Below are positions 9,305 to 51,827 of a DNA stretch of 64,000 bases, in pieces; position 1 is the stretch's first letter, and each line of letters starts with the position of its first letter. The stretch lies in assembly GCA_051418015.1 (NCBI GenBank), contig JBPRGF010000014.1, positions 58,101-122,100 of the forward strand, in the 5' to 3' direction. The notes under the pieces are model-generated. The model ran no database searches. It was not told the DNA's origin and was given only the letters and a program-made list of their open reading frames with translations. The position numbers and the translations under genes were made by a program. Source of the DNA: Candidatus Nitrospinota bacterium M3_3B_026. GTDB taxonomy: Bacteria > Nitrospinota_A > UBA7883 > JBPRGF01.

Positions 9305-11266
9305 TCAGGCCCTCGCGGCGCCGGACTCTTTCCAATCTACCAAAAAGATGTCGTAGCGGACGCCCTCCAGCCCCTTGATCTCGGCCCAGCCTATTTCCCG
9401 GAGAACGAACCTGGGGTCGTCCTTGATGGAGTTGTAGACAATGTATGAGACCAGCACGCGGTTCACCAGCGGGAAATCCACAGGGTCCACGTTCAGTTGC
9501 ATGAATGACTCCGGGCCGAGCCTCTCGATCCTCGAAGCGGCGTTCACCGGCACGCCGAACCGGTCGTTGTCATGCCCCACCCTGGTCTCTCCGAAGTCGA
9601 TCCCCACCCGGACGTTTATCCTGTTTTTCTCGTCCGCCCTCCGGTTGTAATCTTCCAGCTCCTTCAGTGTCTCCACGGCCGCGCTGACGGCGTCGGCGTT
9701 GCTCTCGAAAACGCCCATGAACCCGTCGCCCAAGCCCTTTTTGTACGCGAGGCCGTTGCGCGAGGCCTTTTCGCTGAAAATCTTGTCCAGCGAACTGAAC
9801 AGCTTGAAGAAATGGTATCCCCCGTAGACGTTCATTATCTCCGTGGAGCCTGCCACGTCCAGGAACAGGATCGACTCCGGCCGGGAGTCTTTATACGGCG
9901 AGGCGGGGATGGATGGCGCCTGGAGCGGCTTTGACGGGATCGAGGGTGGAGCGTCCCCGGCGGAGCTTGCGGCGGACACTTTTTCTATGAACTCGGCCAC
10001 TCTTTCGGCGCTCCCCCTGAGGGATTCGTCGGCGAGCTTGATGAAGGTCTCGTAGTCCTTGACGGCTTCCCCGGACAATCCCATGTCATACTTCGCCTTG
10101 CCCCTGTTGTGATAGGCCGGGGCGAAGCTGGGGTTGAGCCGTATGGCCTCGCTGTAGTCGGCGACGGCTTCCTTCTTGAGGCCTAAGTCGGACCTGGCGT
10201 TGCCGCGGTTGTTGTAGGCGGCGGCGTAGCTCGGGTCCAGTTGCGTGGCGGCGTCGTAGTCGGCTATGGCCTCTTCCTTCAATCCCATGTATGAGAGGGC
10301 GTTCCCCTTGTTGTAAAAGACCTGCGGCATGTTCGGCTTCAGCCTCAGGGCCTCCTCGTAGTCGGCGACGGCTTCCTTTTTGAGACCCAGGTCGGACTTG
10401 GCGTTGCCCCGGTTGTAATAGGCCGCGGCAAGATCCGGGTCCAGCTCTATGGCGCGGTCGTAGTCGGCTATGGCCTCTTCCTTGCGCCCCAGGGCGGATT
10501 TTATGTTTCCCCTGTTGTTGTACGCCAGGGCGTAATCCGGACCCAGCTCTATGGCGCGGTCGAAATCGGCTATGGCCTCCTCGGCCCTGCCGAGGTCGTA
10601 TTTAGCGTTCGCCCTGTTGAAAAAGGCCACGGCGTAACGGGGACTGAGTTCTATGGCCTGGTCGTAGTCGGCTATTGCCTCGTCTTTTCGCCCCAGCGAG
10701 TCCTTGGCGATGCCGCGGTTGTTGTACGCCTTGGCGAGGCCGGGGTCCAGGCGGATGGCCTGGTCGTAGTCGGCTATGGCCTCCTCCTTGCGCCCCAGGG
10801 CGGCCTTGGCGCTGCCGCGGTTGTTGTAGGCGGCGGCGTGGGAGGGGTTCAGGCGTACGGCCTGGTCGTAGTCGGCTATGGCCTCCTCCTTGCGCCCCAG
10901 GGCGGACTTGGCGTTGCCACGGTTGTTGTAGGCCACGGCGTAGTTCGGGTTCAGCGCGAGCGCCTGGTCGTAGTCGGCTATGGCCTCCTCCTTGCGCCCT
11001 AGGGCGGACTTGGCGTTGCCCCGGTTGTTGTAGGCGGCGGCGTAATCGGGGTTCAGCTCTATGGCGCGGTCGAAATCGGCGATGGCCTCCTCCCTGTGGC
11101 CCAGGGCGGCCTTGGCGCTGCCGCGGTTGTTGTAGGCGGCGGCGTGGGAGGGGTTCAGGCGTATCGCCTCGTCGAAATCGGCGATCGACTCCCCGGTCTG
11201 CTTGTTTTTATATTTTTCGACGCCTTTTTCGAAATATTGTTTCGCTTTTTCCGTCTCGTTTGACAT
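9305..11266 (-). CDS. TPR-repeat protein (about 12 x 34-aa repeats) with C-terminal class III adenylyl/guanylyl cyclase domain
   Basis: Repeated 'AIADYDQAIELNPDYAAAYNNRGNAKSALGRKEE' units. The C-terminal domain carries 'FLDVAGSTEI', 'GDGFMGVF', 'VRVGIDFGE' and 'GVPVNAASRIE' (cyclase homology domain). 653 aa. Confidence 0.88.
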   Translation of the reverse strand: MSNETEKAKQYFEKGVEKYKNKQTGESIADFDEAIRLNPSHAAAYNNRGSAKAALGHREEAIADFDRAIELNPDYAAAYNNRGNAKSALGRKEEAIADYDQALALNPNYAVAYNNRGNAKSALGRKEEAIADYDQAVRLNPSHAAAYNNRGSAKAALGRKEEAIADYDQAIRLDPGLAKAYNNRGIAKDSLGRKDEAIADYDQAIELSPRYAVAFFNRANAKYDLGRAEEAIADFDRAIELGPDYALAYNNRGNIKSALGRKEEAIADYDRAIELDPDLAAAYYNRGNAKSDLGLKKEAVADYEEALRLKPNMPQVFYNKGNALSYMGLKEEAIADYDAATQLDPSYAAAYNNRGNARSDLGLKKEAVADYSEAIRLNPSFAPAYHNRGKAKYDMGLSGEAVKDYETFIKLADESLRGSAERVAEFIEKVSAASSAGDAPPSIPSKPLQAPSIPASPYKDSRPESILFLDVAGSTEIMNVYGGYHFFKLFSSLDKIFSEKASRNGLAYKKGLGDGFMGVFESNADAVSAAVETLKELEDYNRRADEKNRINVRVGIDFGETRVGHDNDRFGVPVNAASRIERLGPESFMQLNVDPVDFPLVNRVLVSYIVYNSIKDDPRFVLREIGWAEIKGLEGVRYDIFLVDWKESGAARA

Positions 11267-12791: not shown

Positions 12792-13550
12792 ATGCCGGAA
12801 CGTGAGCCCGCCCAGATCCTGAGCCTGTCGGTGATGGGGCGCGGGGGGGAGGAGAAAGCGTTCCCGCTGGATCGTGACAGCCTGACCATCGGCAGGGAGT
12901 CCGGCTGCGACATCATCATCCCTGACCTTTCCATATCCAAAAAACACGCGAGGGTTTTCATCGAGAACGGCAGGACGATGATCGCCGACGGCGTGGACGG
13001 CAAGCCAAGCGTCAACGGTGTTTACGTGAACGACGCTCGCATAAGCGGCCCCGTGGCGCTCAAGGAAGGCGACGTGGTGAAGATGGGCGTGCTGAAATTC
13101 ATGGCGAAGCTGAGCCCGGACCTTAAGCGCCAGGCGACGCTGGAGCAGGTGACCTCCGCGGAGAACCTGAGGGCGTTCCTGGAGTACGGCGAGGCCATGA
13201 AGGCCAGGGAGGCTGACATCCTGGCGCGGATATCCTCCCTTGACCTGGGGGCCGGAGAGCTGACGGAGATTTTCGACGCCGCGCTGGACAGGGCGATGGA
13301 GGAAAGCCGCCTCAAAAAGGTCGGGTTCATCTCCGCCCTGAAACACAAAGCGCTGAAAGAGACGAAAAGCGGCGGAGGCCGGAAGGCCGGACAGTGGAGC
13401 GAAGACGCCGCCGGGGACCCGGACGCCACCGTTCTAGACCCCGCCTTCGCCGCGTCCGCCGGGGCCGGGAAGCGGAGAGGGCTTCTGATCGTCGCGGCGG
13501 CGCTCCTGGGGGCTTTCATTGCCGCCGCCCTTGTTCTGATGTATTTATGA
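12792..13550 (+). CDS. FHA-domain protein with C-terminal membrane anchor
   Basis: N-terminal FHA ('LTIGRESGCDIIIPDLSISKKHARVFIENGRTMIADGVDGKPSVNGVYVND..LKEGDVVKMG'), central acidic region, C-terminal TM helix 'LLIVAAALLGAFIAAALVLMYL'. Confidence 0.78.
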   Translation: MPEREPAQILSLSVMGRGGEEKAFPLDRDSLTIGRESGCDIIIPDLSISKKHARVFIENGRTMIADGVDGKPSVNGVYVNDARISGPVALKEGDVVKMGVLKFMAKLSPDLKRQATLEQVTSAENLRAFLEYGEAMKAREADILARISSLDLGAGELTEIFDAALDRAMEESRLKKVGFISALKHKALKETKSGGGRKAGQWSEDAAGDPDATVLDPAFAASAGAGKRRGLLIVAAALLGAFIAAALVLMYL

Positions 13551-13564
13551 GAAAATAGGAAACC

Positions 13565-14590
13565 ATGGCGGAAAACAGGCTGGACAGGATTTTCGAGGAC
13601 GAAAGCTACCGGGCCCTCAAGGGGGAGGAGAAGAGGGTGTACGGCTTCCTCTCCACCGTGGTGGAGAAAAAGAAGATGCTCCTGGAGCTGGAGAAAAGCT
13701 ACCGCGCGAGGCTCAAGGAGATAGCCGACGAGGTGGCGGGCCGCGAGGGGGCCCTGAACCTTTCGGCCCAGGAGGCGGACGCCGCCGCCGATGGCCTGAA
13801 AAAGACCTTGAAAGCCGCGGATGAGAAGATAAAATCCATCCGCCGTGAGCTGGACTTCGCGGAGCTGCGCCTCTCGGCGGGGGAGTTTGGACGGGAGGAG
13901 CTGGACAGAGAAAGAGACAGGCTTCAGCGGGAGCTCTCGAAGGCGGAGGCGGAAAGATCGTGGATCCAGGACAAGATCGCCCTTGTCAAAAAACTGAAGT
14001 CCGGCTCCAGGAGGACGAAACCGCGAGAGGAACAGAAAGAGCGCAAGACCGACGGGGCGAACGCATCCTCCCCCCGCCGCCCCGCGGAGGCGGAGAAAGA
14101 CAATACGCAAACCACCACCTCCCCCATCATGAGCCTGAAAGGCTTTGGCGGCGCCAGGAGCCCCGACGCGACGATCATCTCCGAGATGACGCTGCCGATC
14201 AAACCCACGGGGGGGAATTTCGACGCCGAAGAAACCATGGCCATCCCGGCGGACCTCGTGGGATCGGATCCGGACAGGCTCCTGGAGGCGTCCCTGCACA
14301 TTCATAACGAGGATGGATGGGAGCGTTTCCCCCTGAAAAAGGAGGATGTGAGCATAGGCAACATCCGCGAGCCGGAAAACGACATCGCCCTTTACGACGC
14401 CCAGGTGTCGAGAAGACACGCGAAGATAATCTACGACGAGCCGACCGACTGCTGGTTTCTCGTGGACCTCGGCAGCCGCAACGGCTCCTTCCTGAACAAC
14501 AAGTTCATAGAGTCGAACGACCCGCAACTTCTGAAAGACAAGGACAGGATAACCCTGGGCGAGACCAGCATAGTCATACACCTGCCCTGA
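13565..14590 (+). CDS. Coiled-coil protein with C-terminal FHA domain
   Basis: N-terminal ~150 aa of E/K/R-rich coiled coil, then C-terminal FHA ('VSIGNIREPENDIALYDAQVSRRHAKIIYD..WFLVDLGSRNGSFLNNKFI..LKDKDRITLGE'). 14-nt gap from the preceding FHA gene. Confidence 0.78.
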   Translation: MAENRLDRIFEDESYRALKGEEKRVYGFLSTVVEKKKMLLELEKSYRARLKEIADEVAGREGALNLSAQEADAAADGLKKTLKAADEKIKSIRRELDFAELRLSAGEFGREELDRERDRLQRELSKAEAERSWIQDKIALVKKLKSGSRRTKPREEQKERKTDGANASSPRRPAEAEKDNTQTTTSPIMSLKGFGGARSPDATIISEMTLPIKPTGGNFDAEETMAIPADLVGSDPDRLLEASLHIHNEDGWERFPLKKEDVSIGNIREPENDIALYDAQVSRRHAKIIYDEPTDCWFLVDLGSRNGSFLNNKFIESNDPQLLKDKDRITLGETSIVIHLP

Positions 14591-15758: not shown

Positions 15759-17246
15759 TTGATGAAACAAGACCGAAGAATAGAGCTTTTAAAGGACATC
15801 GCCGGCCTCATCGGCTCCGTGGCCGACCTGGACAACCTGCTCGCGCTGCTGGTCATCACCGCCACGCGCGTCCTGGAGGTCCGCGCCTCGTCGTTGTTGC
15901 TGCTGGACAAGAAGACCGGCCGCCTTTACTTCCACACCGCCCTCGGCGACAAGAAAGAGAACGTGAAGGAGTTCGAGCTGAAAAAGGGCGAGGGGATAGC
16001 CGGGTGGGTCTTCGAGCGCGGCGAGCCTCTGCTTGTCGAGAACGTGAAGGAAGACCCCCGCTGGGCCTCCGAGATCGCGGAGAAAGTGGGCTTCAACACG
16101 GGGTCCATAGCCTGCGCGCCCCTGAAGGTGGAAGGGGAGGTGATAGGCGTCCTGGAGGTCATAGACAGAGAGGACGGCGCTCCCCTGCGGCCGGAGGACC
16201 TGAAACAGCTGCAGGCATTCTCCGATCTGGCCGCCGCGACGCTCCTGAGCGCCAGGGCGTACAAGAACGTCCAGAGGGAGGTCAGCGAGCTGCGCCGGGA
16301 GCTCGGCTCGAGACGGCGCATAATCGGAAACTCCCCCTCCGTCAGGAAGGCCCTGGAGGACTGTTCCAAGGTGGCCGACTCCAAGGCCACGACGCTCATC
16401 ACCGGGGAGTCCGGCACGGGCAAGGAGCTTTTCGCCCGGCTCATCCACGATCTGTCGCCGCGGAGCGGCGGCCCCATGACGGTTGTCAACTGCGGCGCGC
16501 TGCCGGAGACCCTGCTGGAGCGGGAGCTTTTCGGCCACGAGAAGGGCGCCTTCACGGGGGCCGATTCCATGAAGCCCGGCCTTTTCGAGTCCGCCGACAC
16601 GGGTACCATATTCCTCGATGAGATAGCGGAGACGTCCCCCGCCATGCAGGTCAAGCTGCTGCGGGTCCTGCAGGAGGGAGCGTTTTACAGGGTCGGCGGC
16701 TCCTCGCCGATCCGCGTGGACGTCAGGGTCATCGCGGCCACGAACAAAGACCTTGAGAAGATGGTGAAGGAGAAGACGTTCCGCGAGGATCTTTTTTACA
16801 GGCTCAACGTCTTCAGGCTGCGCCTGCCGCCGCTGCGGGACAGGAGGGACGACATCCCCGCCCTCGCGGAAAAGTTCCTGGCCCGGACGGCGCGGGATAT
16901 GAGCCGCCCTGTCAGGGGTTTTTCGGACGAGGCGATGAACGCCCTCATGAGATACTCCTGGCCCGGCAACATCCGCCAACTGGAGAACGCCGTGGAGCGC
17001 GCCGTGATAATGTCCGAGTCGGAGTTGATCGAGCTCGACGACCTGCCTGGGGAGGTGCGGGAGACCGGCGGCGGGGACATTCACGTGGGCATGAGCCTGA
17101 AAGACGCCCAGGACGGCTTCAAGAGGGCGTTTATAGCGCAATCGCTGGCGTTCCTCGGCGGCAACAAGACGAAAACGGCTAAGATGCTGGGCATACAGCG
17201 CACCTACCTGAGCAGGCTCATAAGGGAGCTTGGCATAAACTCTTAA
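15759..17246 (+). CDS. Sigma-54-dependent transcriptional activator with N-terminal GAF sensor (Fis-type HTH)
   Basis: GAF region, then AAA+ 'ITGESGTGKELFAR', the GAFTGA loop ('EKGAFTGA'), 'RVDVRVIAATN', and C-terminal Fis-like HTH 'KTAKMLGIQRTYLSRLIRE'. Confidence 0.9.
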   Translation: MMKQDRRIELLKDIAGLIGSVADLDNLLALLVITATRVLEVRASSLLLLDKKTGRLYFHTALGDKKENVKEFELKKGEGIAGWVFERGEPLLVENVKEDPRWASEIAEKVGFNTGSIACAPLKVEGEVIGVLEVIDREDGAPLRPEDLKQLQAFSDLAAATLLSARAYKNVQREVSELRRELGSRRRIIGNSPSVRKALEDCSKVADSKATTLITGESGTGKELFARLIHDLSPRSGGPMTVVNCGALPETLLERELFGHEKGAFTGADSMKPGLFESADTGTIFLDEIAETSPAMQVKLLRVLQEGAFYRVGGSSPIRVDVRVIAATNKDLEKMVKEKTFREDLFYRLNVFRLRLPPLRDRRDDIPALAEKFLARTARDMSRPVRGFSDEAMNALMRYSWPGNIRQLENAVERAVIMSESELIELDDLPGEVRETGGGDIHVGMSLKDAQDGFKRAFIAQSLAFLGGNKTKTAKMLGIQRTYLSRLIRELGINS

Positions 17247-17274
17247 AACGCCGGGCGGCGGGACGCGCCCGGGG

Positions 17275-18099
17275 ATGGAAGGCATGGAAAACCTCGTATG
17301 GATCGCCGCGGGCCTCGCCCTGATAGCGATGATAGCCACCAGGCTGAGGGAGCAGAGGCAGGAGTCGCGCCACAGGAGGGGGCTGTCACCCGCCGCGTCC
17401 AACCGGTTTCGCGGCGGCCACGACGGGATGTTCGACGCGCGGGTTATAGCCTTGGAGTTCGACGAATCCGGCCCGGTGATGTTCATAAACGGCAAGTTCA
17501 AAAACGGCGAGGAGCCTACGGACATCGGGCTGGTGACGGCGGAGGTGGAGCACGCCGCGGGGACGGAGACTTTTTTCCCGTTCGACGCCGACACGGGCGA
17601 GGAACCCGGCGAGCGCAGGCTGGGAGACCTTGTGAACCTTGTCGCGCCCGCCTCCTTCTCTCCCTTCGAGAGGGGGATGTTCCGCGCGCCCCTTTTCTCT
17701 CCGGACCGCGAGGAGCGCCTCGCCAGCGCCGTCGACCGGCTGGACAGCGCCGCCATGCGCATGGTGGAGAAGCTCGATCGGGAGTTTGACAGCTACTCTC
17801 TGGAGGGGGAGCCGCTGGCCCGGCTGGAGGAGGACTTCCGGCGTGATTTCGTGGTGAAGGAAATCGCCGATGAGATAGAACGCGAGCTTCTCTGGCGGCC
17901 GGGACGCTTTTCGATCATCGCGAAGTTCGTGTCCGGCGGCAATGACGTCGTGGACAAGATATCCCTGACGATCCATCTCGACCAGAGCAACGCCGAAAAG
18001 CTCAGGAAAAACGTGGACGCGATAATAACCAACGCCCTCCGCGCCGAGCTGGACCTGGAGCCTGCGCTCTACACCCCGGTGATATTCGAGAGAGAATAG
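17275..18099 (+). CDS. Hypothetical protein with N-terminal TM anchor
   Basis: 274-aa ORF with GC3-rich codon usage. N-terminal hydrophobic helix 'LVWIAAGLALIAMIA'. No recognised domain. Confidence 0.45.
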   Translation: MEGMENLVWIAAGLALIAMIATRLREQRQESRHRRGLSPAASNRFRGGHDGMFDARVIALEFDESGPVMFINGKFKNGEEPTDIGLVTAEVEHAAGTETFFPFDADTGEEPGERRLGDLVNLVAPASFSPFERGMFRAPLFSPDREERLASAVDRLDSAAMRMVEKLDREFDSYSLEGEPLARLEEDFRRDFVVKEIADEIERELLWRPGRFSIIAKFVSGGNDVVDKISLTIHLDQSNAEKLRKNVDAIITNALRAELDLEPALYTPVIFERE

Positions 18100-19539: not shown

Positions 19540-20219
19540 ACCCTGTAGAAAGCCTCGAAAAATATTGTCCAGGACATCTTGGACTTGCCACCCTCCCTGT
19601 CCTTGAAGACTATCGGAATCTCCTTTATCTTAAACCCTTTTTTGCTCGCCCTGTAGGTCATCTCTATCTGGAAGGAATAACCCTCGGAGCGGACCTCGTC
19701 CAGGGGCAGCGACTCCAGGATCCTCCGCCGGAAACATTTGAAGCCCCCCGTGAGGTCGCGGTATGGCAGGGAGAGTATGATCCTGGAATAGAGGCTTCCT
19801 CCCATGGATATGATCTTGCGGAAGAAAGGCCAGTTCTCCACGCCGCCGCCCTCCACGTAGCGGGAGCCTATGACAAGATCCGCCTCGCGCGCCGCCTCCA
19901 GGAAATCGGGGAGGTAGGCCGGGTCGTGGGAGAAATCGGCGTCCATCTCGAATATGTATTCGAACCCGTGTTCCAGGGCGTGCTTGAACCCGGCGATGTA
20001 CGCCGTGCCCAGACCGAGCTTGCCAGGCCTGCGCAGAAGGCGGACGCGCTCGTCTTTTTCCGACAGCCTTTCCACGAGGCCGCCCGTGCCGTCGGGAGAG
20101 TTGTCGTCCACCACCAGGACGGAGGCTTCGGGGAGCCTGTCGTGTATCGCGCCGATAAGCCTTTCTATGTTCTCTATCTCGTTGTAGGTCGGGATGATGA
20201 CAAGGGTTTGGGAATTCAT
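19515..20219 (-). CDS. GT2-family polyprenyl-phosphate glycosyltransferase (dolichol-phosphate mannosyltransferase-like)
   Basis: 'LVIIPTYNEIENI', 'VVDDNSPDGT', 'GLGTAYIAGF', 'FEMDADFSHDP'. Start at MNSQTL inside the longer ORF. 3' overlap with lpxB indicates an operon. Confidence 0.85.
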   Translation of the reverse strand: MNSQTLVIIPTYNEIENIERLIGAIHDRLPEASVLVVDDNSPDGTGGLVERLSEKDERVRLLRRPGKLGLGTAYIAGFKHALEHGFEYIFEMDADFSHDPAYLPDFLEAAREADLVIGSRYVEGGGVENWPFFRKIISMGGSLYSRIILSLPYRDLTGGFKCFRRRILESLPLDEVRSEGYSFQIEMTYRASKKGFKIKEIPIVFKDREGGKSKMSWTIFFEAFYRVWQIRFMI

Positions 20220-20397
20220 AGGAGGGCATTTTAAGGTAAAGAGCCGCTGGAGGGCAATCACGGAGAGAGGAGCGTCAAAATTCCGTCTATCAAGTTATCC
20301 TGAAACTCTCCGACAATTAGGGTGTAATCTCAACGTGGCCAGGCCCCAGAGCGCCTGAAACTGGATCTACATTAATAACGTCGATTACGTTTGAACG

Positions 20398-21000
20398 ATG
20401 GCGATTCGCATGAAACCTGCCGTGGCTTTCAGTCTTGTTCCGGTTCTCCTGCTGGCCTTCCTCGGAGCCTGCGCGCTGCTGGAGCGGGATTTCACGGCAA
20501 GCAAGGCCGAGGCGCTGAACAGGGAAATAGGAAAGGTCGCCATAGAGCTCGCCAACCGCCTGCGTGAGTTCGACCCCACGGACAAGACCATAGCCGTCGC
20601 CACATTCGTCGAGCTGGACCGGCTGGAGAGCACATCCTCCTTCGGCAGGCTGGTAGCCGAGCGGCTCGCCGCGGAGCTTTACAAGCTCGGCTTCAGGGTC
20701 CGCGAGCTGCGGCAGATGAGCGAGGTGGAGATCGTCCCGGATAAGGGCGAGCTGGCCCTCTCCCGCCGGGCGGAGCGGCTTGTGAAAAAATACCGGGTGG
20801 ACGCGCTGGTCACGGGCACCTACGCCATGGTCGGCGACGAGGTGATGGTCAGCGCCCGGCTTTTGAGCGTGGACACGGCAAGGGTGGTCTCCGTGGGCAA
20901 GATGGTGGCCCACGCGAGGATGAACTCCTACATCCATGATCTTCTGACCCGCCGGTCCGAGGCGAGCGCGCCGGTGGTGAGGGTGCACGGCGATGAGTAG
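20398..21000 (+). CDS. Lipoprotein with FlgO/TolB-N-like domain (paralog 1 of 3)
   Basis: Signal peptide plus lipobox 'LAFLGAC'. Shared motif 'IAVATFVELDRLESTSSFGRLVAERLAAELYKLGFRVRE...GELALSR...VDALVTGTYAMVGDEVMVSARLLSVDT'. Confidence 0.55.
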   Translation: MAIRMKPAVAFSLVPVLLLAFLGACALLERDFTASKAEALNREIGKVAIELANRLREFDPTDKTIAVATFVELDRLESTSSFGRLVAERLAAELYKLGFRVRELRQMSEVEIVPDKGELALSRRAERLVKKYRVDALVTGTYAMVGDEVMVSARLLSVDTARVVSVGKMVAHARMNSYIHDLLTRRSEASAPVVRVHGDE

Positions 21001-22189
21001 GGGGATCACAGGGATGAGCGCGAAACACTGGGCGGCTCTCGTCATGTCCGCCGTCATCGCCGCGGGATGCTACCCGTACCGCAAGGAGCCGGACTTCCAG
21101 AGCAGGCTCGTCCCTTCGCGGCCTTCCTATGGCGGGCAATATGAGTGGCCGCCATACTCGGCGATATACACCCAGCGCTTTGTCTGGAAGATGCGCTACA
21201 TGGCCGAGAGGCTGGCCGCCGGGATGCCCGAGGGGGAAAGGGAGAGAACGCCCCTGCTCATGACCACCATGGCGCCGGCGGACGACATCTACCGCGGGAC
21301 GAGCTTCGGCAGGCTTGTCACCGAGACGCTGATGACGGAGCTTTCCGCGCAGGGGTTTGAGGTCATCGAGGCGAGAAAGATGGACGGCTACAAAATCCTC
21401 GACCACGAGGGCGAGTTCTATCTCTCCCGCGACGTCAAGAGGATAGCCGCCGAGCACGAGGCCGGCGCGGCCCTCGTCGGGACGTACTCCGAGTCCGGCG
21501 GCCAGGCCATCATAAACACCAGGATCATAGACACAAGGCAAGGCAGGGTCATCGCCGCCGCCACGGCCATGATGGACATACGCGGCGACAGGTTCCTCGG
21601 GCCGATCCTGACCGGGGATGGCGCTGGCGGGACAGGCGCCGAAACGCCGGAGATAGCCACGCGCAAGAAGGTGATGCCCGCCGAGGATCCATACTCCGAG
21701 GTGTTGCGGGACATGGCCCGCGATATGGCCTATGACGTGGCCGAGGCGGCCGCGGGCGAGGCGGGCCGGGCGCCGGTCATCGCCGTCGCCACCTTTGTGG
21801 ACGTGGACAACATGTACCGCGCCGCCACCTTCGGAAGGTACATTACGGAGCTTCTGATGGAGAACCTCTCCTCCATGGGCCACGAGGTGCTCGAGCTTCG
21901 CGCCGCGCCGGAGGTGTTCGTCGACCTGCGGATAGGCGAGCTTGCCCTGACCAGGGAGATGAGCCAGCTCGTCGGCTCGACCGGCGCCGGCGCGGTCGTC
22001 CTCGGCACCTACACCAAGGCCGGCGACAAGGTGATGGTCAGCGCCAGGATGGTCGTGAAAAAGACGAAGAGAGTTATCGGCGTGGGGAGCATGACGGTGG
22101 ACGCGGGCGAAGAGAACGAGTTCGTCGCGGCGCTTCTGAAAAACGAGATAGCCGCCGTTCCACCAACCGAGACCGTGGAGGGTTTTTGA
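20993..22189 (+). CDS. Lipoprotein with two tandem FlgO/TolB-N-like domains (paralog 2)
   Basis: Lipobox 'IAAGC'. Two copies of the motif ('LLMTTMAPADDIYRGTSFGRLVTETLMTELSAQGFEV..GAALVGTYSESGGQAIINTRIIDT' and 'VIAVATFVDVDNMYRAATFGRYITELLMENLSSMGHEV..GAVVLGTYTKAGDKVMVSARMV'). ATGAGTAG start/stop overlap with the upstream paralog. Confidence 0.55.
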   Translation: MSRGITGMSAKHWAALVMSAVIAAGCYPYRKEPDFQSRLVPSRPSYGGQYEWPPYSAIYTQRFVWKMRYMAERLAAGMPEGERERTPLLMTTMAPADDIYRGTSFGRLVTETLMTELSAQGFEVIEARKMDGYKILDHEGEFYLSRDVKRIAAEHEAGAALVGTYSESGGQAIINTRIIDTRQGRVIAAATAMMDIRGDRFLGPILTGDGAGGTGAETPEIATRKKVMPAEDPYSEVLRDMARDMAYDVAEAAAGEAGRAPVIAVATFVDVDNMYRAATFGRYITELLMENLSSMGHEVLELRAAPEVFVDLRIGELALTREMSQLVGSTGAGAVVLGTYTKAGDKVMVSARMVVKKTKRVIGVGSMTVDAGEENEFVAALLKNEIAAVPPTETVEGF

Positions 22190-22190
22190 G

Positions 22191-22745
22191 ATGAAAGCGG
22201 CAAGACTCATCGCGGGACTCTTGTTCGCGGCGGCCGCGCTTTCCGGCTGCGCGGGGCTCGCGGCGGCCCCGAAACGCGCCGTGGGGCCGGCGCCGGACGA
22301 CCAGTTCGGCGCGATGTACCTGGCCTACACGATCAAGGGCCAACTCCGCCACAGGGAGGTGATGGACCAGCCTATCGTCGTCACCACCTTCGTCGACCTG
22401 AACAACCTGGCCAGGTCATCGGTCTTCGGCAGGGTCCTGGCGGAGAAGCTGCTGACGGAGCTTCACCTGGCGGGGTTCACGGTGTCGGAGATAAGAAAAG
22501 GCAGGGACATCTTCATCCGCAAGGAGTTGGGGGAGCTTATCCTCTCCCGCGACTCCAGGGAGATACTGGGCAAGTCGAGGGCGCGGGCCGCCCTGGCGGG
22601 GACCTACGTGGCCACGGAGGATTCCGTGATAGTCAACGCAAGGCTCATAGACGTGGGCAGCCCGCTGATCCTCTCCTCCTGCTCCTACAATCTCCCCATG
22701 ACGGGTGAGCTTCAGAAACTTTTGACGGGCGAGGCCCCGTTTTAG
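22191..22745 (+). CDS. Lipoprotein with FlgO/TolB-N-like domain (paralog 3)
   Basis: Lipobox 'ALSGC'. 'IVVTTFVDLNNLARSSVFGRVLAEKLLTELHLAGFTV..AALAGTYVATEDSVIVNARLIDV'. Starts 1 nt after the upstream stop. Confidence 0.55.
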   Translation: MKAARLIAGLLFAAAALSGCAGLAAAPKRAVGPAPDDQFGAMYLAYTIKGQLRHREVMDQPIVVTTFVDLNNLARSSVFGRVLAEKLLTELHLAGFTVSEIRKGRDIFIRKELGELILSRDSREILGKSRARAALAGTYVATEDSVIVNARLIDVGSPLILSSCSYNLPMTGELQKLLTGEAPF

Positions 22746-22769
22746 AAGATGAGCCGAGGAGACTGGAAA

Positions 22770-23327
22770 ATGAGAGTTTTTGAGCTTGCGGTGGCGGTCT
22801 TCTTCGTCGCGGCCCTCGCCGCGCCGCCGGCCTTCGCCAACGGTGTCCCGGAGAGCGCGACGCCCGCCGACGGGGCCATGGCCGGGAGCGCGGAGGCAAA
22901 AGAGATGAAAAAGACCGAAAGCGCGGGGCCGACGCCGCCCTCCGCGGAAGCGGACCAGGAGATAACCCCCCCGGTGAGCGGCGCGGGGGCGGAGGCCGTC
23001 GCCCCGGCAGTGAGCGGGGAGGGGACGACCGAGAGGAGGATCGGCGTCGTTACCACGTCCCCCATGCCGCCGACGATACGCAAGGTCTCCGTGCTTATAG
23101 AGTCGTCCCCCTCGAATTGCGACATCGAGATAGACGGCGTGTACGTGGGGTCTACACCGGTACAGCTTTCGCTAAAAGAGGGCGTGCACCACGTCAAGAT
23201 ATCGAGGGAGGGGTACCTCCCCTGGGCGAAGGCGGTGAAGGCTTACCACGGCCTTTATGTGAACCCGGCGCTGGTCAGCGAGTCGGCCCGCTCCGCGGAC
23301 ATCAAGGAAAGCGCGAGCGCCAGGTGA
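22770..23327 (+). CDS. Secreted PEGA-domain protein
   Basis: GGAGA RBS before ATG 22770. Signal peptide 'MRVFELAVAVFFVAALAAPPAFA'. Ala/Pro/Glu-rich linker, then PEGA fold 'NCDIEIDGVYVGSTPVQLSLKEGVHHVKISREGYLPW'. Confidence 0.68.
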   Translation: MRVFELAVAVFFVAALAAPPAFANGVPESATPADGAMAGSAEAKEMKKTESAGPTPPSAEADQEITPPVSGAGAEAVAPAVSGEGTTERRIGVVTTSPMPPTIRKVSVLIESSPSNCDIEIDGVYVGSTPVQLSLKEGVHHVKISREGYLPWAKAVKAYHGLYVNPALVSESARSADIKESASAR

Positions 23328-23352
23328 CGCCTTTAGCGGCGCGCCGGGCTTG

Positions 23353-24243
23353 TCATTCCTCCTCGGCCAGCCTCCGAAGGTATTCGCCGTACTCGTTCTT
23401 GCTCAAGGGGTCGGCAAGCCTCAGGAGCTGGTCTTTGTCTATGTAGCCCATCCTGTAGGCCACCTCCTCAACGCAGGCCACCTTGAGCCCCTGCCTGTTC
23501 TCGATGGTCTCGATGAAGTTCGCCGCCTCCAGCAGCGACTGGCTGGTGCCTGTGTCGAGCCATGCGACCCCCCGCCCCAGTACCCGCACGTCCAGGTCGC
23601 CGCGCTCGAGGTAGACGTTGTTGATGTCGGTGATCTCAAGCTCGCCCCGGACGGAGGGTTTCAGCCCCGCGGCTATCTCCACGACGTCGTTGTCGTAGTA
23701 GTAGAGCCCCGTGACGGCGAAATGGGACTTGGGATTTTCCGGCTTTTCCACGATCTTCTCCGGCCTGCCGTCCTTTGAAAGCTCCACCACCCCGTAACGG
23801 CTCGGGTCGCGCACCCAGTAGCCGAATATGGTGGCGCCGGATTCCCTGGCCGCGGCCTTTTTCATGGTCTCGGGCAGCCCCTCGCCGTAGAAAAGATTGT
23901 CACCCAGGATCATGATGACGGGATCGGAGCCTATGAACTCCCGCCCGATGATGAAAGCCTGCGCCAGCCCCTCGGGCCTGGGCTGTATGGCGTAGGATAT
24001 ATCGAGGCCCAGCTGCGAGCCGTCCCCTAAAAGCCGCTCGAAGCCGCTCTTGTCCTCGGGGGTGGTTATAATAAGTACCCGCCGGACGCCGGAGAGCATC
24101 AGCGTGGAGAGGGGATAGTAGATCATCGGCTTGTCGTACACCGGCAGAAGCTGCTTGCTGCCCGTCAGGGTCAGCGGATACAGCCTCGTCCCGGCGCCGC
24201 CGGCGAGGATTATCCCTTTTCTTCCTGTTTCGCTTTCACTCAT
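23353..24243 (-). CDS. rfbA: Glucose-1-phosphate thymidylyltransferase
   Basis: '[16 protein letters not shown]...[25 protein letters not shown]', 'GLAQAF', 'ILGDNLFYG', '[18 protein letters not shown]'. Confidence 0.95.
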
Positions 24244-28985: not shown

Positions 28986-30269
28986 ATGAGAGAGGATCTT
29001 TCGAAGCTCACCAAGGCGCAGCTTCTGGAGCTTGCCGCCAGGAGGAAGGTAAAGGCGGTCTCCTCGATGAAAAAGGACGAGATCGTCAAAGCCATCGAGA
29101 AGGCGAAAGCCGCCGCTAAAAAGAAGGCGAAGACGGCCGCGGCGAAGAAAAAAGCGGCGGCGGGCAAACCGAAGGCGGCCCCGGAAAAAAAGAGCGCCGC
29201 CGGGAAAGCCGCCCGTCCCGCGGCGAAAAAGAAGGCGAGAGCGGCCGCGAGGCCCGCCGCGAGGGCGAAAACGGCCAGGCCCGCAAAACCCGCGCGGGAG
29301 AAGGCGCCGGAGACCGCTCCCTCTCCCGCGGCTGAGCCGAAGAGGAACAACTGGGACATCAACCTGGAGGGCAAGAAGTTTTTCGTCGCCGAGGAGGTGG
29401 AGGATTTCCCGCCGCCGGAGCCGGACGAGGCGCCGGAAAGCTACGCCGACAACAGGATCGTCGCCCTCGCCCGCGACCCGCGCCATCTTTACGTCTACTG
29501 GGAGACCAACCCCGGCCTTGCCGAAAAGGCCCGCCAGACCCTCGGCGGCAAGGGCTGGGACAAGCTGCGATGGACGTTGCGCGTTCACGACGTCACCGGC
29601 GCGGAGCTTGAGAATGCCTCGCGTGTCTTCGACGTCCCCGTCGAGCAGGGCGCCGGCAGCGCTTATGTCGATGTCGGCCGTCCTGACAGCGAGTATGTTG
29701 TCTCCGTGGGCCTGATGGACGACGAGGGCGGGTTCGAGGCGGTGGCCGTCTCCGGCAGGGCCATGACGCCCCGCGAGGCCGTCTCCTCCGAGACGGACGC
29801 GGAGTGGATGGTCCCGGCGGAGACGTTCGAGAAGCTTTACGGCATATCCGGCGGCGGAGTCCCTGGGGAGAGCTCTCTTGGCCTTGGCGGCTCGGAGCTT
29901 GGGATAGGCGCGTCGGAGCTTGGCGTTCCCATAGAGGAAATATCGTCCGGCGCCGTGTCGAGCCTTGGGGCGTCCGAGGAGTTTTTGGCGAAGGCCGCCC
30001 GCGAGCGGGGCTTTTTCTTCTGGCTGAACTGCGAGCTGGTCGTTTACGGCGGGACCATGCCGGACGCCACGGTCACCCTGAAGGGGGAGAGAATAAAACT
30101 CCGGCCGGACGGCACTTTTTCGGTCCGCTTCTCCCTGCCGGACGGCGCCCTCGACATCCCCGTGACGGCCGAGTCCGCCGATGGCGCCGACAGGAAGGAG
30201 ATATCCCCCACGGTGACCAGGGCCACGAAGGTGAGCGAGGCGCGCGGCGAGAGGGAAAAGGCGAGATAA
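28986..30269 (+). CDS. Rho_N-like / Lys-Ala-rich / DUF4912 protein (GH57-associated)
   Basis: N-terminal 'LSKLTKAQLLELAARRKVKAVSSMKKDEIVKAIE' (Rho N-terminal-like fold), K/A-rich basic spacer, and DUF4912-like core 'IVALARDPRHLYVYWE'. Immediately upstream of the GH57 gene, a recurrent pairing. Confidence 0.7.
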   Translation: MREDLSKLTKAQLLELAARRKVKAVSSMKKDEIVKAIEKAKAAAKKKAKTAAAKKKAAAGKPKAAPEKKSAAGKAARPAAKKKARAAARPAARAKTARPAKPAREKAPETAPSPAAEPKRNNWDINLEGKKFFVAEEVEDFPPPEPDEAPESYADNRIVALARDPRHLYVYWETNPGLAEKARQTLGGKGWDKLRWTLRVHDVTGAELENASRVFDVPVEQGAGSAYVDVGRPDSEYVVSVGLMDDEGGFEAVAVSGRAMTPREAVSSETDAEWMVPAETFEKLYGISGGGVPGESSLGLGGSELGIGASELGVPIEEISSGAVSSLGASEEFLAKAARERGFFFWLNCELVVYGGTMPDATVTLKGERIKLRPDGTFSVRFSLPDGALDIPVTAESADGADRKEISPTVTRATKVSEARGEREKAR

Positions 30270-30303
30270 GGGGCCGGGCGGCGGCTTCGAAGCGGCGAGA
30301 CCG

Positions 30304-31905
30304 ATGGACACGGGATACCTGGCGCTGGTCCTTCACGCGCATCTGCCCTACGTGCGCCACCCGGAGCACGAGGAGTTTCTGGAGGAGGACTGGCTTTACG
30401 AGGCCGTGACGGAAACCTACCTGCCACTGCTGACGGTTTTCGAGGGGCTTTTGAAGGACGGGATCGATTTCAAGGTCACGGTCTCGCTCTCCCCCACTCT
30501 GATCGCCATGCTTTCCGACCCTCTTCTCCGGGGCAGGCTCTCAAGAAGGCTTGAAAAGCTCATCGAGCTAAGCGCGGCGGAGATCCACAGGACGGCCGCC
30601 ACGCCCTCCGTCAACGCCCTCGCCAGGATGTACAACTGGCGTTTCACCCGCGCCCTTGAGCTTTACGAGAACACCTACCGGCGCGACCTCGTCTCCGCCT
30701 TCGCGAGGCTGGCCGACGAGGGCGCGGTGGAGATAATCACCTCCACCGCCACGCACGGGTATCTGCCCTTGCTGGCGGTGAACGAGGCGGCGGTCCGCGC
30801 CCAGGTCCGCGTCGCCTGCGACTTCTACCGGAGGACCTTCGGCAGGCCGCCGCGGGGGATGTGGCTGCCGGAGATGGGCTACTGCCCGGGAGTCGAGAAG
30901 ATCTTAAGGGACGAGGGGATACTCTACTTTTTCACCGACGCCCACGGCGTGCTCCATTCAAGGCCGCGCCCGCGCTACGGCGTCTTCGCCCCCATATACA
31001 CGGACGAGGGGGTGGCCGTCTTCGGGCGGGACATGGAGTCCGGCAGACAGGTCTGGAGCGCGAAGGTGGGGTATCCCGGCGACCCCTGCTACCGCGACTT
31101 TTACCGCGACATCGGCTTCGACCTGGAGTTCGACTACATAAAGCCCTACATCCAGCCCAACGGCCACAGGAAGATGACGGGGATAAAATACTACCGCATA
31201 ACCAGCGGCGCCGCCGACAAGGAGGTCTACGACCACGCCGAGGCCCTCCGCAAAGCCTCCGAGCACGCCGCCGATTTCCTGGAGCGCAGGGTCGAGCAGG
31301 CGCGAAAGCTCAAAGGGCTGATGGACAGGCCCCCGGTCATCGTTTCCCCCTACGACGCGGAGCTTTTCGGCCACTGGTGGAACGAGGGGCCGGAGTTTTT
31401 GAACTTTCTGTTCAGGAAGCTTCATCACGACGGCCGCGGGCTGAGGGCCGTCACGCCATACGAATACCTGAAAATCCATCCCGTCAACCAGAAGGCCGAG
31501 CCCGCCGCCTCGTCCTGGGGATACAAGGGCCACTCCGAGGTGTGGCTCGACGAGAGCAACGACTGGATATACCGCCACCTGCACAAGGCCGCGGACCGCA
31601 TGACCGAACTGGCCTCTTCGCGCCGGGAGGCAGACGGCGTGACGCGGCGCGCGCTCAACCAGGCCGCCCGCGAGCTTCTGCTGGCGCAAAGCAGCGACTG
31701 GGCTTTCATAATGAAGACGGGGACGATGGCCCCCTACGCCGAGAAGAGGACGAAGGAGGGCATCGCGCGGTTCACCCGCCTGTACGGGCAGATAATGAAC
31801 GGGGAGATAGACGAGGGGTTCCTGGAATACCTCGAGGGAGTGGACAACATCTTTTCAGACATAGACTACAGTGTCTACGCCGACAACGCTTCCGGCTCCC
31901 GCTAG
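30304..31905 (+). CDS. GH57-family 1,4-alpha-glucan branching enzyme
   Basis: 'YLALVLHAHLPYVRHPE', 'ITSTATHGYLPLL', 'MWLPEMGY', 'SPYDAELFGHWWNEGPEFL' match the GH57 branching-enzyme catalytic Glu/Asp region. 533 aa. Confidence 0.85.
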   Translation: MDTGYLALVLHAHLPYVRHPEHEEFLEEDWLYEAVTETYLPLLTVFEGLLKDGIDFKVTVSLSPTLIAMLSDPLLRGRLSRRLEKLIELSAAEIHRTAATPSVNALARMYNWRFTRALELYENTYRRDLVSAFARLADEGAVEIITSTATHGYLPLLAVNEAAVRAQVRVACDFYRRTFGRPPRGMWLPEMGYCPGVEKILRDEGILYFFTDAHGVLHSRPRPRYGVFAPIYTDEGVAVFGRDMESGRQVWSAKVGYPGDPCYRDFYRDIGFDLEFDYIKPYIQPNGHRKMTGIKYYRITSGAADKEVYDHAEALRKASEHAADFLERRVEQARKLKGLMDRPPVIVSPYDAELFGHWWNEGPEFLNFLFRKLHHDGRGLRAVTPYEYLKIHPVNQKAEPAASSWGYKGHSEVWLDESNDWIYRHLHKAADRMTELASSRREADGVTRRALNQAARELLLAQSSDWAFIMKTGTMAPYAEKRTKEGIARFTRLYGQIMNGEIDEGFLEYLEGVDNIFSDIDYSVYADNASGSR

Positions 31906-48101: not shown

Positions 48102-49949
48102 TTATCTTCCGCCTATCCCATAAAACGCCCACAGGCCGATGACGGTCACGATGATAAATACAACCGTCATCCCTCCTCCCGCCTTTATGTAGTCCATGGT
48201 ACGGTATCTGCCCGGGCCCATCAGCAGGGCGTTGACCTGGTGCGTGGGCAGTATGAAGGAGTTCGACGTGGCAAGGCCCACCACAAGCGCCGCCATTCGG
48301 GGATCCGTCCCCGTTTCCTCGGCCATGCTTATGACCAGGGGAACCAGCAGGACGGTGGCTCCGACGTTTGATATCACCAGCGTGAAGACCGTTGTCAAAA
48401 CCGCGATGACCGTGAGCAGGGCCAGCGGCGAGATGTCCCCCATGACGGCCAGGGCGTTGTGGGCTATGTAGGCCGCCGCCCCGCTCTTCTCCGTGGCTAT
48501 CCCCAGGGGGATGAGGCCTGCGAGCAGGAAAACCGTCCGCCAGTCGACGGCCTCGTATGCCTCGTCGATGGACAGGACGCTGGTGAGGACCATCAGCAAC
48601 GCCCCCGTCATGAGGCACACGGAAAGGGATATGGGAAGGCCGAGAATATCCTTGAAAATTACCAGGGTAATGGCCACGGAGAAGCTGATGAAGGCCGGTT
48701 TCGCCTTGCTCAGGCGGAACTCCTCGTATTCCACGGGGACGGAAAAGAGAAGGTCCGGCGAGTCCTTGAGCTTTGCGAAGGAGCGCCAGGAGCCGTGCAA
48801 AAGCAACGCGTCGCCCGGCAGGAGGGGTATGTCGGCGATGCCGGCCATGAACACTTTCCCTTCCCTGTAGAGCGCCACCGGCGTTATGTCATACTCGCTC
48901 CTGAAACGGTAGTGCCGCAGGGTCGTCCCCACCAGCTCCGAGCGCGGCGACACGATCGCCTCCACCAGCCCCGCCCTGGCGGCGGACATCTCCTCGGCGA
49001 AGACCTCCAGCTCCTGTTTCACCTGGAAATCGTAGCTTTCGGCCAGTTTCCTGACGTTGTTCTCGTGGCCGATCACGGCCAGGGTGTCGTTCGAGTAGAC
49101 CCTGTGGCTGCGGAGCGGCGACAGGGCCTTCTGGGTCACGCCAGCCTGGGCTATGGCCACGACCGTCACGATAAAGGACCGGCGGATCTGGAGCTCCTCC
49201 AGCGTTCTGCCGGAATAGCGGAAATCCGGCGGGGCGACAAGCTCGTAGACCTTGCCGCTGGCGCCGTACAGGTCGAGTATCTTCAGGGCGCCGCCGATAT
49301 CCACGCCCGCGGCGTCCGCCCGGACGGGCAGGATGAGCTTGCCGAAAACGAGGAAGTAGACGATGCCAGAGGCGACGAGCATAAGGCCTATGGGGGTGAC
49401 GGAAAAGAGGCCGAAAGGCTCGAGGTCCGCGTATTCAAGCAGGTCGTTCAAAAGTATCAACGGACTCGAGGCGACCAGGGTGACGGTCCCGCCAAGGATG
49501 GCGCAAAAGCCCATGGGCATGAGAATCCGCGACAGGGGTATGTTGAGCTGCTTGCTGACCCGCATGGAGGCGGGCAGAAAGAGGGCCGCCGCGCCGATGT
49601 TCTGCATGAAGCTCGATATTAGGGCCACCGTTCCGCATATGGCCGTCAAAAGGTGGGAGTAACCTTTCTTCCCGAACCTTATTATAGGCGCCGCCACCTG
49701 GTTCATTATCCCCGTCCTGTCCAGGCCCGCCCCGATTATTACCACCGCGATGATGGCGACCACCGCGTTCGAGGAAAGGCCCGAGAAGGCTTCCTTGGGG
49801 GTGACAAGGCCGAGCAGTGGAAGGCTGACCATCATTATTATGGCCACCACGTCCACCCGGACCAACTCCGTGATGAACAAAGCGACGGCGGCCGCGAGGA
49901 CGCCGAGGACCATCAATATCTCTATCGTGAGGACGGGGTCTGTCTCCAT
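48102..49949 (-). CDS. SLC13/DASS-family anion permease with two central TrkA-C domains
   Basis: 615 aa. Two hydrophobic halves separated by about 200 aa with TrkA-C-like 'LVG.TLR' and 'LLPGD.L.L.G' motifs. Confidence 0.8.
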   Translation of the reverse strand: METDPVLTIEILMVLGVLAAAVALFITELVRVDVVAIIMMVSLPLLGLVTPKEAFSGLSSNAVVAIIAVVIIGAGLDRTGIMNQVAAPIIRFGKKGYSHLLTAICGTVALISSFMQNIGAAALFLPASMRVSKQLNIPLSRILMPMGFCAILGGTVTLVASSPLILLNDLLEYADLEPFGLFSVTPIGLMLVASGIVYFLVFGKLILPVRADAAGVDIGGALKILDLYGASGKVYELVAPPDFRYSGRTLEELQIRRSFIVTVVAIAQAGVTQKALSPLRSHRVYSNDTLAVIGHENNVRKLAESYDFQVKQELEVFAEEMSAARAGLVEAIVSPRSELVGTTLRHYRFRSEYDITPVALYREGKVFMAGIADIPLLPGDALLLHGSWRSFAKLKDSPDLLFSVPVEYEEFRLSKAKPAFISFSVAITLVIFKDILGLPISLSVCLMTGALLMVLTSVLSIDEAYEAVDWRTVFLLAGLIPLGIATEKSGAAAYIAHNALAVMGDISPLALLTVIAVLTTVFTLVISNVGATVLLVPLVISMAEETGTDPRMAALVVGLATSNSFILPTHQVNALLMGPGRYRTMDYIKAGGGMTVVFIIVTVIGLWAFYGIGGR

Positions 49950-50574: not shown

Positions 50575-51219
50575 TCAGCCCATGGGGGAGACGCAGTAGT
50601 CGTAAAAACTTTGTATGGCCTCGAGGCTTTTCCTGTCCTCCGTCTCAAACTCCACCCCAACGAGGCGAAGGCTTCTCGGCTCCCGTATGTTCCGCGCCAG
50701 GCACCCCAGCCGCTCCACCGCCGCTCCACCGGGCAGCTTAAGCGATATCCATACGGTCTCCCCCACCTCCGGTAGAAAGTCCCCCTCGAAGGATAAAAGC
50801 GCCCCCTCCCGCGAAAGGTCCATCATGGCCCCCCCCTCGGGCTCCGTCTCCTCCTCGAACGCTATCTTGATGGGGATGAAGGTTTTGATCCTCTCGCTCC
50901 GGCGAAGGTTGCGCTCCTCCACGGCCTTCGGGAAATCCACGACCAGTATCTGGCTGGGGGCGAGGTACTCGTGGTTCACGATGGCGCGGAACCCGAACAT
51001 GACCCCCTGGTGGATGTACCTTATGAGGACCGTTTTGCCCTTGGGCAGCGAGATGAGCCTGCCGTCTTTTTTCGGCATGTCCAGCAACACCCACCGGGGA
51101 GGGACAATGCCGCGGATGACGGTGGAATATTTCTTGTTCTCCACCTGTATCTGCGCCCCCTCGCCTATGGGAATGGCGGCGCCTTCGGCGGCGGCCGGCC
51201 TCGGCTCCGTCTCCCTCAT
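50575..51219 (-). CDS. YcgR-like PilZ-domain c-di-GMP receptor (paralog 1)
   Basis: YcgR-N-like N-terminal beta-domain. PilZ motifs 'RRSERI' and 'DLSREGALL'. Confidence 0.7.
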   Translation of the reverse strand: MRETEPRPAAAEGAAIPIGEGAQIQVENKKYSTVIRGIVPPRWVLLDMPKKDGRLISLPKGKTVLIRYIHQGVMFGFRAIVNHEYLAPSQILVVDFPKAVEERNLRRSERIKTFIPIKIAFEEETEPEGGAMMDLSREGALLSFEGDFLPEVGETVWISLKLPGGAAVERLGCLARNIREPRSLRLVGVEFETEDRKSLEAIQSFYDYCVSPMG

Positions 51220-51827
51220 GGCGAAGCCTCCATCCTGGCGGCGGCCATCTCCAGGAATTCAGACAACGTTCTCTCGTTGTCGTCCCCAAGGGAAACAAAG
51301 TCCAGTCCCAGTTCGTAACCTTCCTGTATTCTGGCGATCCTTCTCACCACCGCCTGCGCGTTGTCCACCTCGCCCCCCTCGCCGGGGGTGAAGGTCAAAA
51401 AAAGCGTTTCGTTCACCGCGGCGGGGCGGGGGCTTATGATACGGGCGCCGTTGTGGCTGATGTCGCGGATGACCCCGCGCCACTCCTCGAGCTCGTGGCC
51501 GGCCAGTATCTGCAGTATCTCGACGGGAATGGAGACGGGGACCCTCTCGCTTCTGCGCTCGGAGTTGCGCTCCACACGCTCCGGATAGGCAAGGAGAGCC
51601 AGGCTGTGATTGTAGAGAAACTGGAGCAGGGTCGTAACGAACCCGAAAGGCTCGCCTCCCATGAAGAAACGGGCGACCATTTCGTCGCCGGTCTTGAGGC
51701 TCGCGCCGGGTTCTGTGGTGTAGTCCATGTCGATGAGGATATAGCCGCCCTTTCGCCAGCCTCTCACGCGGCTTTTGAACCGGCCATTCTCACCTTCCAT
51801 CTGTATTTCCTGACCAGCGATGAACAT
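51216..51827 (-). CDS. YcgR-like PilZ-domain c-di-GMP receptor (paralog 2)
   Basis: PilZ motifs 'RRSERV' and 'DISHNGARI'. ATGA overlap with the downstream paralog. Confidence 0.7.
   Translation of the reverse strand: MFIAGQEIQMEGENGRFKSRVRGWRKGGYILIDMDYTTEPGASLKTGDEMVARFFMGGEPFGFVTTLLQFLYNHSLALLAYPERVERNSERRSERVPVSIPVEILQILAGHELEEWRGVIRDISHNGARIISPRPAAVNETLFLTFTPGEGGEVDNAQAVVRRIARIQEGYELGLDFVSLGDDNERTLSEFLEMAAARMEASP

Follow-up and report, generated by a model that had tools for sequence, protein, structure and literature searches.

Flagellar motors differ in structure and torque mainly through additional rings in the periplasm and at the outer membrane. The only characterised member of the FlgO family is FlgO of Vibrio cholerae. 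This lipoprotein is tethered to the outer membrane, forms a ring of 58 subunits (C58) within the H-ring, and contacts the FlgP ring next to it (bioRxiv 10.64898/2025.12.02.691832). Vibrio encodes a single FlgO protein with one domain; its gene lies beside flgP and flgT and belongs to sigma-54 class III (PMC6504787, PMC6375700). Here we describe a block of four genes (A, B, C, and D) encoding three FlgO-family lipoproteins and a PEGA-domain protein in a 64-kb stretch of DNA (the window; 62% GC) from Candidatus Nitrospinota bacterium M3_3B_026. To our knowledge, studies of FlgO have been confined so far to H-rings of the Vibrio type, where FlgP and FlgT accompany it.

We predict that the block encodes a FliA-regulated flagellar ring module that is tethered to the outer membrane, has a PEGA partner, and does without FlgP and FlgT; we put the probability of this reading at roughly 0.5. 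It is favored because two independent lines of evidence point the same way, true homology of the domains to the flagellar H-ring protein FlgO and a conserved FliA-type promoter. No description of a lipoprotein block combining FlgO and PEGA was found in the literature. To the extent of the searches made, the architecture is undescribed and restricted to Nitrospinota: three lipoproteins with four FlgO domains (including a two-domain fusion), an obligate PEGA partner, no FlgP or FlgT, and a sigma-28-type promoter. The proteins themselves belong to a known family and are already labeled accordingly by NCBI, where the identical M3_3B_026 proteins are named "FlgO family outer membrane protein" and "PEGA domain-containing protein"; MGK7344813 and MGK7344815 are protein accessions of this MAG.

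Gene structure and conservation of the block

Genes A to D form one self-contained operon (Table 1). The A/B junction (ATGAGTAG) is an 8-nt overlap, the B/C junction is TGAgATG, and the C/D junction is TAGaagATG. That stop and start codons overlap or abut suggests coupled translation, with fixed proportions of A, B, and C. In all four genes, GC content varies with codon position as it does in real genes. NCBI places the start of D at M8 (22770), which gives a protein of 185 aa and is likely the true start. Inspection of the sequences found no Asp at position +2 after the lipobox Cys in A, B, or C. The Cys is kept in nearly all orthologs and is displaced or truncated in a few.

Table 1. Promoter motif and genes of the block, with positions in the window
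Feature	Position	Strand	Description
sigma-28 (FliA)-type motif	20290-20316	+	TCAAGTTA-N11-TCCGACAA; 81 nt upstream of the A start codon
gene A	20398-21000	+	200 aa; lipoprotein, lipobox LGA|C; one FlgO domain, aa 47-168; Pfam PF17680 E 2.9e-30
gene B	20993-22189	+	398 aa; lipoprotein, AAG|C; FlgO domains at about aa 70-194 and 247-385; Pfam E 6e-58, in two stretches
gene C	22191-22745	+	184 aa; lipoprotein, LSG|C; one FlgO domain; Pfam E 3e-33
gene D	22749-23327	+	192 aa; secreted; signal peptide AFA|NG, without a lipobox Cys; PEGA PF08308, aa 114-169, E 1.3e-14

About 17 non-redundant Nitrospinota loci, drawn from genomes and metagenomes, preserve the A-B-C-D order, and in most of them the genes overlap or abut. 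A is always first in the block and C is its most conserved member. Ortholog identity is about 48-57% for A, about 46-51% for B, about 65-78% for C in most loci, and about 46-58% for the PEGA part of D. The divergent block of locus L012 has lower identity for all four genes (34-50%; C 47%), and L007 has about 430 bp of extra sequence between B and C (L007:7684-8117). We found 35 word-indexed homologs of the two-domain protein B, all about 400 aa long. Those with a source name all come from Nitrospinae/Nitrospinota metagenome-assembled genomes (MAGs) or from vent metagenomes binned as Nitrospinae; most matches are unnamed. B is rare: of 1.84 billion proteins searched, 8 cluster representatives match it at E<=1e-30. 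Every named match in the homolog search with D is from a Nitrospinota-type MAG. The search with C also drew divergent FlgO proteins that belong to other cluster types (L013/L014, described below).

The genes on either side of the block differ among loci. Upstream, one sub-clade has lpxB, with or without a GT2 gene, and other loci have genes for DUF1615, GGDEF, radical SAM, CHASE2 cyclase, phosphofructokinase, or amidohydrolase (in L017, the CHASE2-cyclase gene is directly upstream of the FlgO block). Downstream are rfbA/recG, a CDP-alcohol phosphatidyltransferase, ribonucleotide reductase, or dUTPase. Since the flanks vary, we consider the block to be an autonomous module and lpxB-GT2 a lineage-specific neighbor, not an obligatory partner. 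The conserved order, the overlap or abutment of the genes, and the heterogeneous flanks together fit a stoichiometric structural complex with its own promoter.

Two loci have only part of the block. L003 has the order GGDEF-B-C-D and lacks A. The 752-kb contig L064 has a solitary C-like FlgO gene (9543-10885) after a GGDEF gene, and lacks A, B, D, and the promoter motif. These loci suggest stepwise loss within one sub-lineage.

FlgO domains and the PEGA protein

The PF17680 bit scores are 105 for A, 195 for B (two domains), and 115 for C, well above the curated cut-off of 22.6. The four FlgO domains have 28-40% mutual identity, with pairwise BLASTP E values of 1e-18 to 1e-26; at these scores, the fourfold repeat of the module is real and far beyond chance. 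Profiles of the B and C families match V. cholerae FlgO (PDB 9YDS, 9YFG) with E values of 1.7e-16 and 6.6e-22, respectively, and this protein is their sole sequence-level relative among solved structures. Judged by these profile matches, the domains are true FlgO homologs.

The AlphaFold model of B (a single chain) has a mean predicted local distance difference test score (pLDDT) of 69, with values of 80-89 in the domain cores, and a predicted template modeling score (pTM) of 0.43. Foldseek matched the model to LpoB, GNA1162, and PelC with probability 1.0 and target-normalised TM-scores of 0.49-0.62, and the best matches were the C-terminal domains of LpoB (E 7e-06, probability 1.0). The likeness to LpoB is at the fold level only, with no Pfam or NCBIfam match to LpoB in the block. 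Likewise, no sequence-level similarity to PelC was found when the B- and C-family profiles were compared with solved structures. Foldseek matches of B to KaiC (TM about 0.12) are artefacts of a two-domain alpha/beta query. A CsgG/HfaB channel was considered and rejected: PF03783 reached only E 0.13 (12 bits over 23 residues of B; cut-off 20.8), and the sequences corresponding to the CsgG transmembrane hairpins are, by inspection, highly charged.

The most conserved motif across all four domains is GE[FL]xLSR. In the model of B it coincides with the low-confidence stretches (residues 129-145 and 305-319), as might be expected for an interface element that becomes ordered upon assembly. The alignment of B shows a conserved EPDFQ...WPP..YTQRFVWKM segment at the N-terminus and a C-terminal P-x-E-T-V-E-G-[YF] (window 22166-22189) that is invariant in 33 sequences. 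The C-terminus of C, LLTGE-x-PF (window 22722-22745), is strongly conserved. The extreme C-termini of both B and C finish with an aromatic residue and have the look of docking peptides.

Protein D begins with a signal peptide, continues with a low-complexity linker that includes a conserved GGGA motif, and carries a PEGA beta-sandwich toward its C-terminus (PF08308, 54 bits; cut-off 20.8). In the model of D, the PEGA domain has a pLDDT of 85-94 and seven strands, and its fold is transthyretin-like / carboxypeptidase-regulatory. No sequence relative of D was found in the PDB.

Much of this structure had been described in an earlier reading of the window, made without database searches (the sequence-only reading). 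It had proposed three lipobox proteins joined by stop/start overlaps, a secreted PEGA protein directly after them, and a module of the FlgO/LpoB-type lipoprotein fold present four times, twice in the middle protein. The open reading frames and junctions match its coordinates exactly, and the PF08308 match and signal peptide of D bear out the PEGA protein. Pfam and pairwise BLASTP of the copies recover the same four modules, and the Pfam FlgO matches and the LpoB/GNA1162/PelC fold found by Foldseek are in line with the fold it assigned. It had also named conservation of the four-gene block as a check on its unity, and the block is kept as a unit in the loci counted above.

The sigma-28-type motif upstream of FlgO genes

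The motif upstream of A was found by scanning the 136-bp A-upstream region with the sigma-28 consensus. We used the E. coli consensus TAAAGTTT-N11-GCCGATAA (PMC2859248) unmodified. The window site has 12 of 16 identities to it. Sites with at least 12/16 identities occur in the 220 nt upstream of the block in 12 of 18 loci, compared with 2.5% of control windows.

The motif is conserved among Nitrospinota in the general form T[TC]AAGTTT-N11/12-GNCGAAAA upstream of the first gene, and the DNA around it is unconserved. In 16 non-duplicate Nitrospinota-type loci, T[TC]AAGT[TA]N-N11/12-NNCGA[ATC]NN is present 25-150 nt upstream of the first gene. In L003, which is without gene A, the motif is placed upstream of B. 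The window site scores 15.9 bits with a position weight matrix (PWM) built without it. Shuffled 64-kb windows contain 0.77 such sites on both strands together, or about 8e-4 expected per 136-nt intergenic region. For the nine new loci outside the PWM that have enough upstream sequence, the A-upstream site is the top-scoring site of the locus; the exceptions to a clear top rank are L026, where it is tied with one other site, and L032, where it is second by 0.1 bit. There are 39 sites of at least 15 bits in 1.14 Mb, about 31 of which are directly before a FlgO-domain gene cluster. By its sequence, the motif is predicted to be read by sigma-28 (FliA).

Some other candidates were set aside. A loose sigma-54 pattern gave 15 matches over the window vs 10.8 expected, none of them in the intergenic region upstream of A, and was rejected. 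A scan of 20100-23500 for sigma-70 promoters and terminators gave nothing useful on the + strand. Another high-scoring site, at 3871 in L026, falls where a histidine-kinase gene ends and precedes an open reading frame for a receiver domain; it is uninformative. The window has a second match to the motif, TCGAGTAT-N12-GCCGATAT at 49273-49300 (+), with 16.9 bits by the leave-window-out PWM. This match is inside, and antisense to, a CitMHS transporter gene (48102-49949) and is probably due to chance.

FlgO genes preceded by this type of motif also occur in an unrelated lineage of 60-62% GC (L045-L057 and L062), which has FlgO-domain gene pairs about 350 nt apart. Many of these contigs carry Ga01233xx sample prefixes. 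The pairs are preceded by near-consensus sigma-28 boxes, TTAAGTTT-N11-[GT]CCGATA[GA] (for example at L055:40-66, L050:3189-3215, and L057:8537-8563). The L055 site, TTAAGTTT-N11-GCCGATAA, is closer to the consensus than the Nitrospinota sites. The flanking genes in L057 (exonuclease VII and DUF362) are not flagellar.

A second cluster type (L013:4059-7270, L014:4985-8176, and L033-L039) encodes three FlgO lipoproteins with one domain each; the middle protein has a long linker rich in Q and P. The genes on either side of the cluster encode two small conserved proteins, one secreted and about 130 aa long and the other of about 145-152 aa, and Pfam gave no match for either. These loci lack a PEGA gene, and no sigma-28-like motif precedes their FlgO cluster. 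This second lineage has TTAAGTGA-N12-TCCGAAAA directly before a gene for a DUF4124 and SLT lytic transglycosylase (L013:1675-1702 (-), L037:6246 (-), and L036:44 (-)), and a FapA (DUF342) gene sits between this motif and the FlgO cluster.

Flagellar and non-flagellar readings

In the flagellar reading, the block would be transcribed from its own sigma-28 (FliA)-type promoter and expressed alongside the late genes of the flagellum. The N-terminal Cys of A, B, and C would carry the lipid, anchoring these proteins on the inner face of the outer membrane. By analogy with V. cholerae, their four paralogous FlgO domains may form hetero-oligomeric or concentric rings, seated beneath the outer membrane around the L/P-ring region and possibly in contact with the motor. 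Contacts between subunits likely involve the GE[LF]xLSR motif and the C-terminal tails of B and C, which are invariant. D would be a non-lipidated partner in the place held by FlgP or FlgT in Vibrio. We suggest, tentatively, that Nitrospinota and, independently, at least one other lineage with FlgO pairs build a previously unseen flagellar disk or ring, associated with the outer membrane, made solely of FlgO-family lipoprotein paralogs, with four distinct domains per unit, and a PEGA protein, without FlgP or FlgT, and late and FliA-dependent in its expression.

Several observations weigh against a flagellar role. FlgO-type domains occur in non-flagellar periplasmic proteins too. Pfam searches of about 50 open reading frames in the window and of about 20 neighborhoods of the block found no flagellar structural gene, in agreement with the sequence-only reading, which had reported flagellar genes to be absent nearby. 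Nor was there a FlgP (LPP20) or FlgT domain in the block, the window, or the same neighborhoods. The sigma factor is assigned by sequence resemblance only, and promoters of the extracytoplasmic function (ECF) type are similar in geometry (AAC...CGT). The motif is missing from the two sister loci L004 and L010, where a TTGACG-type element is found in its place. In V. cholerae, flgO is a sigma-54/FlrC class III gene and not a sigma-28 gene (PMC6504787), and flgT, flgO, and flgP are adjacent in Gammaproteobacteria (PMC6375700).

Flagellar genes are reported from the phylum. The core genome of Nitrospina/Nitromaritima is reported to include flagellar assembly and chemotaxis genes, and motility has never been seen in culture (PMC5029188). 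FliO has been identified in Nitrospinota (PMC12403147). A search beyond the window from the gene at one of its ends gave only an 8-kb contig, which has no flagellar genes. The window encodes two tandem YcgR-like PilZ proteins (PilZNR and PilZ) at 50575-51219 (-) and 51216-51827 (-), with no sigma-28-like motif upstream of the pair. YcgR-like receptors of c-di-GMP act on the motor in flagellated bacteria. Apart from these, the only genes with a motility flavor came from two distant loci: one for FapA and one MptE-like.

The block could instead encode a non-flagellar envelope complex, a rival that we take seriously but consider less probable. The three FlgO/LpoB-fold lipoproteins, tethered to the outer membrane, and the PEGA protein would then form a periplasmic scaffold or ring for outer-membrane or cell-wall organization, expressed via an alternative sigma factor (ECF-like or of the sigma-28 family) that is untied to flagella. 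Such a complex would account for the lack of flagellar genes across the roughly 20 neighborhoods and for a block without FlgP or FlgT partners. Its fold would be the one common to the non-flagellar proteins LpoB, GNA1162, and PelC, and lpxB and a GT2 gene are often adjacent in one sub-clade. However, the lpxB adjacency is not universal, and the only solved sequence-level relative is the flagellar protein FlgO. The conserved promoter also fits the sigma-28 consensus, in its two boxes as well as in the length of its spacer, and the same motif stands before the FlgO genes of an unrelated lineage. The sequence-only reading had favored a complex of this kind, with lpxB-GT2 as its functional partner. 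We retain the grouping of the lipoproteins with the PEGA protein. The partnership with lpxB-GT2 is given up, as the adjacency is confined to one sub-clade and other flanks are found elsewhere. The step from missing flagellar neighbors to a non-flagellar role is not followed either, given the conserved sigma-28-type motif and the flagella reported in Nitrospinota.

Two narrower functions are suggested by the fold, and we give both very little credence. The lipoproteins might form a PelC-like ring for export, through which a secreted polysaccharide would be guided to a porin in the outer membrane, in keeping with the nearby sugar-nucleotide genes. The model of B matches the PelC dodecamer with probability 1.0, and GT2, rfbA, and epimerase genes flank the block in the window, but the sugar-nucleotide neighbors are missing in many loci and the profiles are without sequence-level similarity to PelC. 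There are no pel genes in the window or related loci, and the block neither contains nor has conserved beside it any gene for a porin or for polysaccharide export. The other function is that of LpoB-like regulators that reach from the outer membrane and activate or scaffold peptidoglycan synthases or hydrolases. This would agree with LpoB C-terminal domains being the best Foldseek matches and with the M23 peptidase near the block in L001, a neighbor found in that one context only. However, A, B, and C are without the long disordered linker typical of LpoB, no gene for a penicillin-binding protein is linked to the block, and there is no sequence-level match to LpoB.

The window has other genes of note. 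A 653-aa protein (9305-11266, -) has about ten TPR repeats followed by an adenylate/guanylate cyclase domain. Two adjacent FHA-domain proteins (12792-14590, +) are followed by a DnaJ, a GAF-sigma-54 activator, and a 274-aa protein without a Pfam match (15759-18099, +). The activator and the 274-aa gene are still beside lpxB in L004 and L024, and so form a conserved neighborhood of their own. A DUF4912 protein followed by a GH57 1,4-alpha-glucan branching enzyme (28986-31905, +) is probably a glycogen-metabolism pair.

The block would be a specific candidate for a motor architecture not described before, in a phylum that branches deeply and matters in the environment, and would be evidence that FlgO rings are possible without FlgP or FlgT. 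The motif would provide a sequence-defined model of a sigma-28 promoter for Nitrospinota. If a disk of FlgO paralogs exists in Nitrospinota and in the other lineage, FlgO rings would be an ancient and widespread motor accessory, not a speciality of Vibrio and Shewanella. Should the block turn out to be non-flagellar, it would give a first indication that true FlgO homologs can have a role outside the motor.

LpoB, GNA1162 (DUF799), and PelC are outer-membrane lipoproteins with the same alpha/beta domain fold as the proteins described here, and PelC forms a 12-mer ring. The block differs from all three in sequence, and their partner genes (PBP1b for LpoB, the CsgG-like/DUF4810 trio for GNA1162, and the pel operon for PelC) are absent. 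The basal disk of the Campylobacter type (FlgP/FlgQ) would be similar in concept, as it consists of outer-membrane lipoproteins in large concentric rings around the L/P-rings (PMC5758724). The Campylobacter basal-disk lipoproteins are encoded away from other flagellar genes. They belong to the FlgP/LPP20 family and not to FlgO, and Pfam found no FlgP-family match in the block.

The closest known relative is V. cholerae FlgO. Both systems have the homologous domain (E 6.6e-22) of about 130 aa, a lipobox Cys, and a partner encoded in the same operon, and the G-[DE]-[FL]-x-[FL]-[ST]-R segment aligns between them. Unlike the single-domain FlgO of Vibrio, the Nitrospinota block has four paralogous domains in three proteins, one of which is a two-domain fusion. 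The Nitrospinota operon is unlinked to flagellar genes and has a sigma-28-type promoter, and a PEGA protein takes the operon place of the FlgP and FlgT of the Vibrio H-ring.

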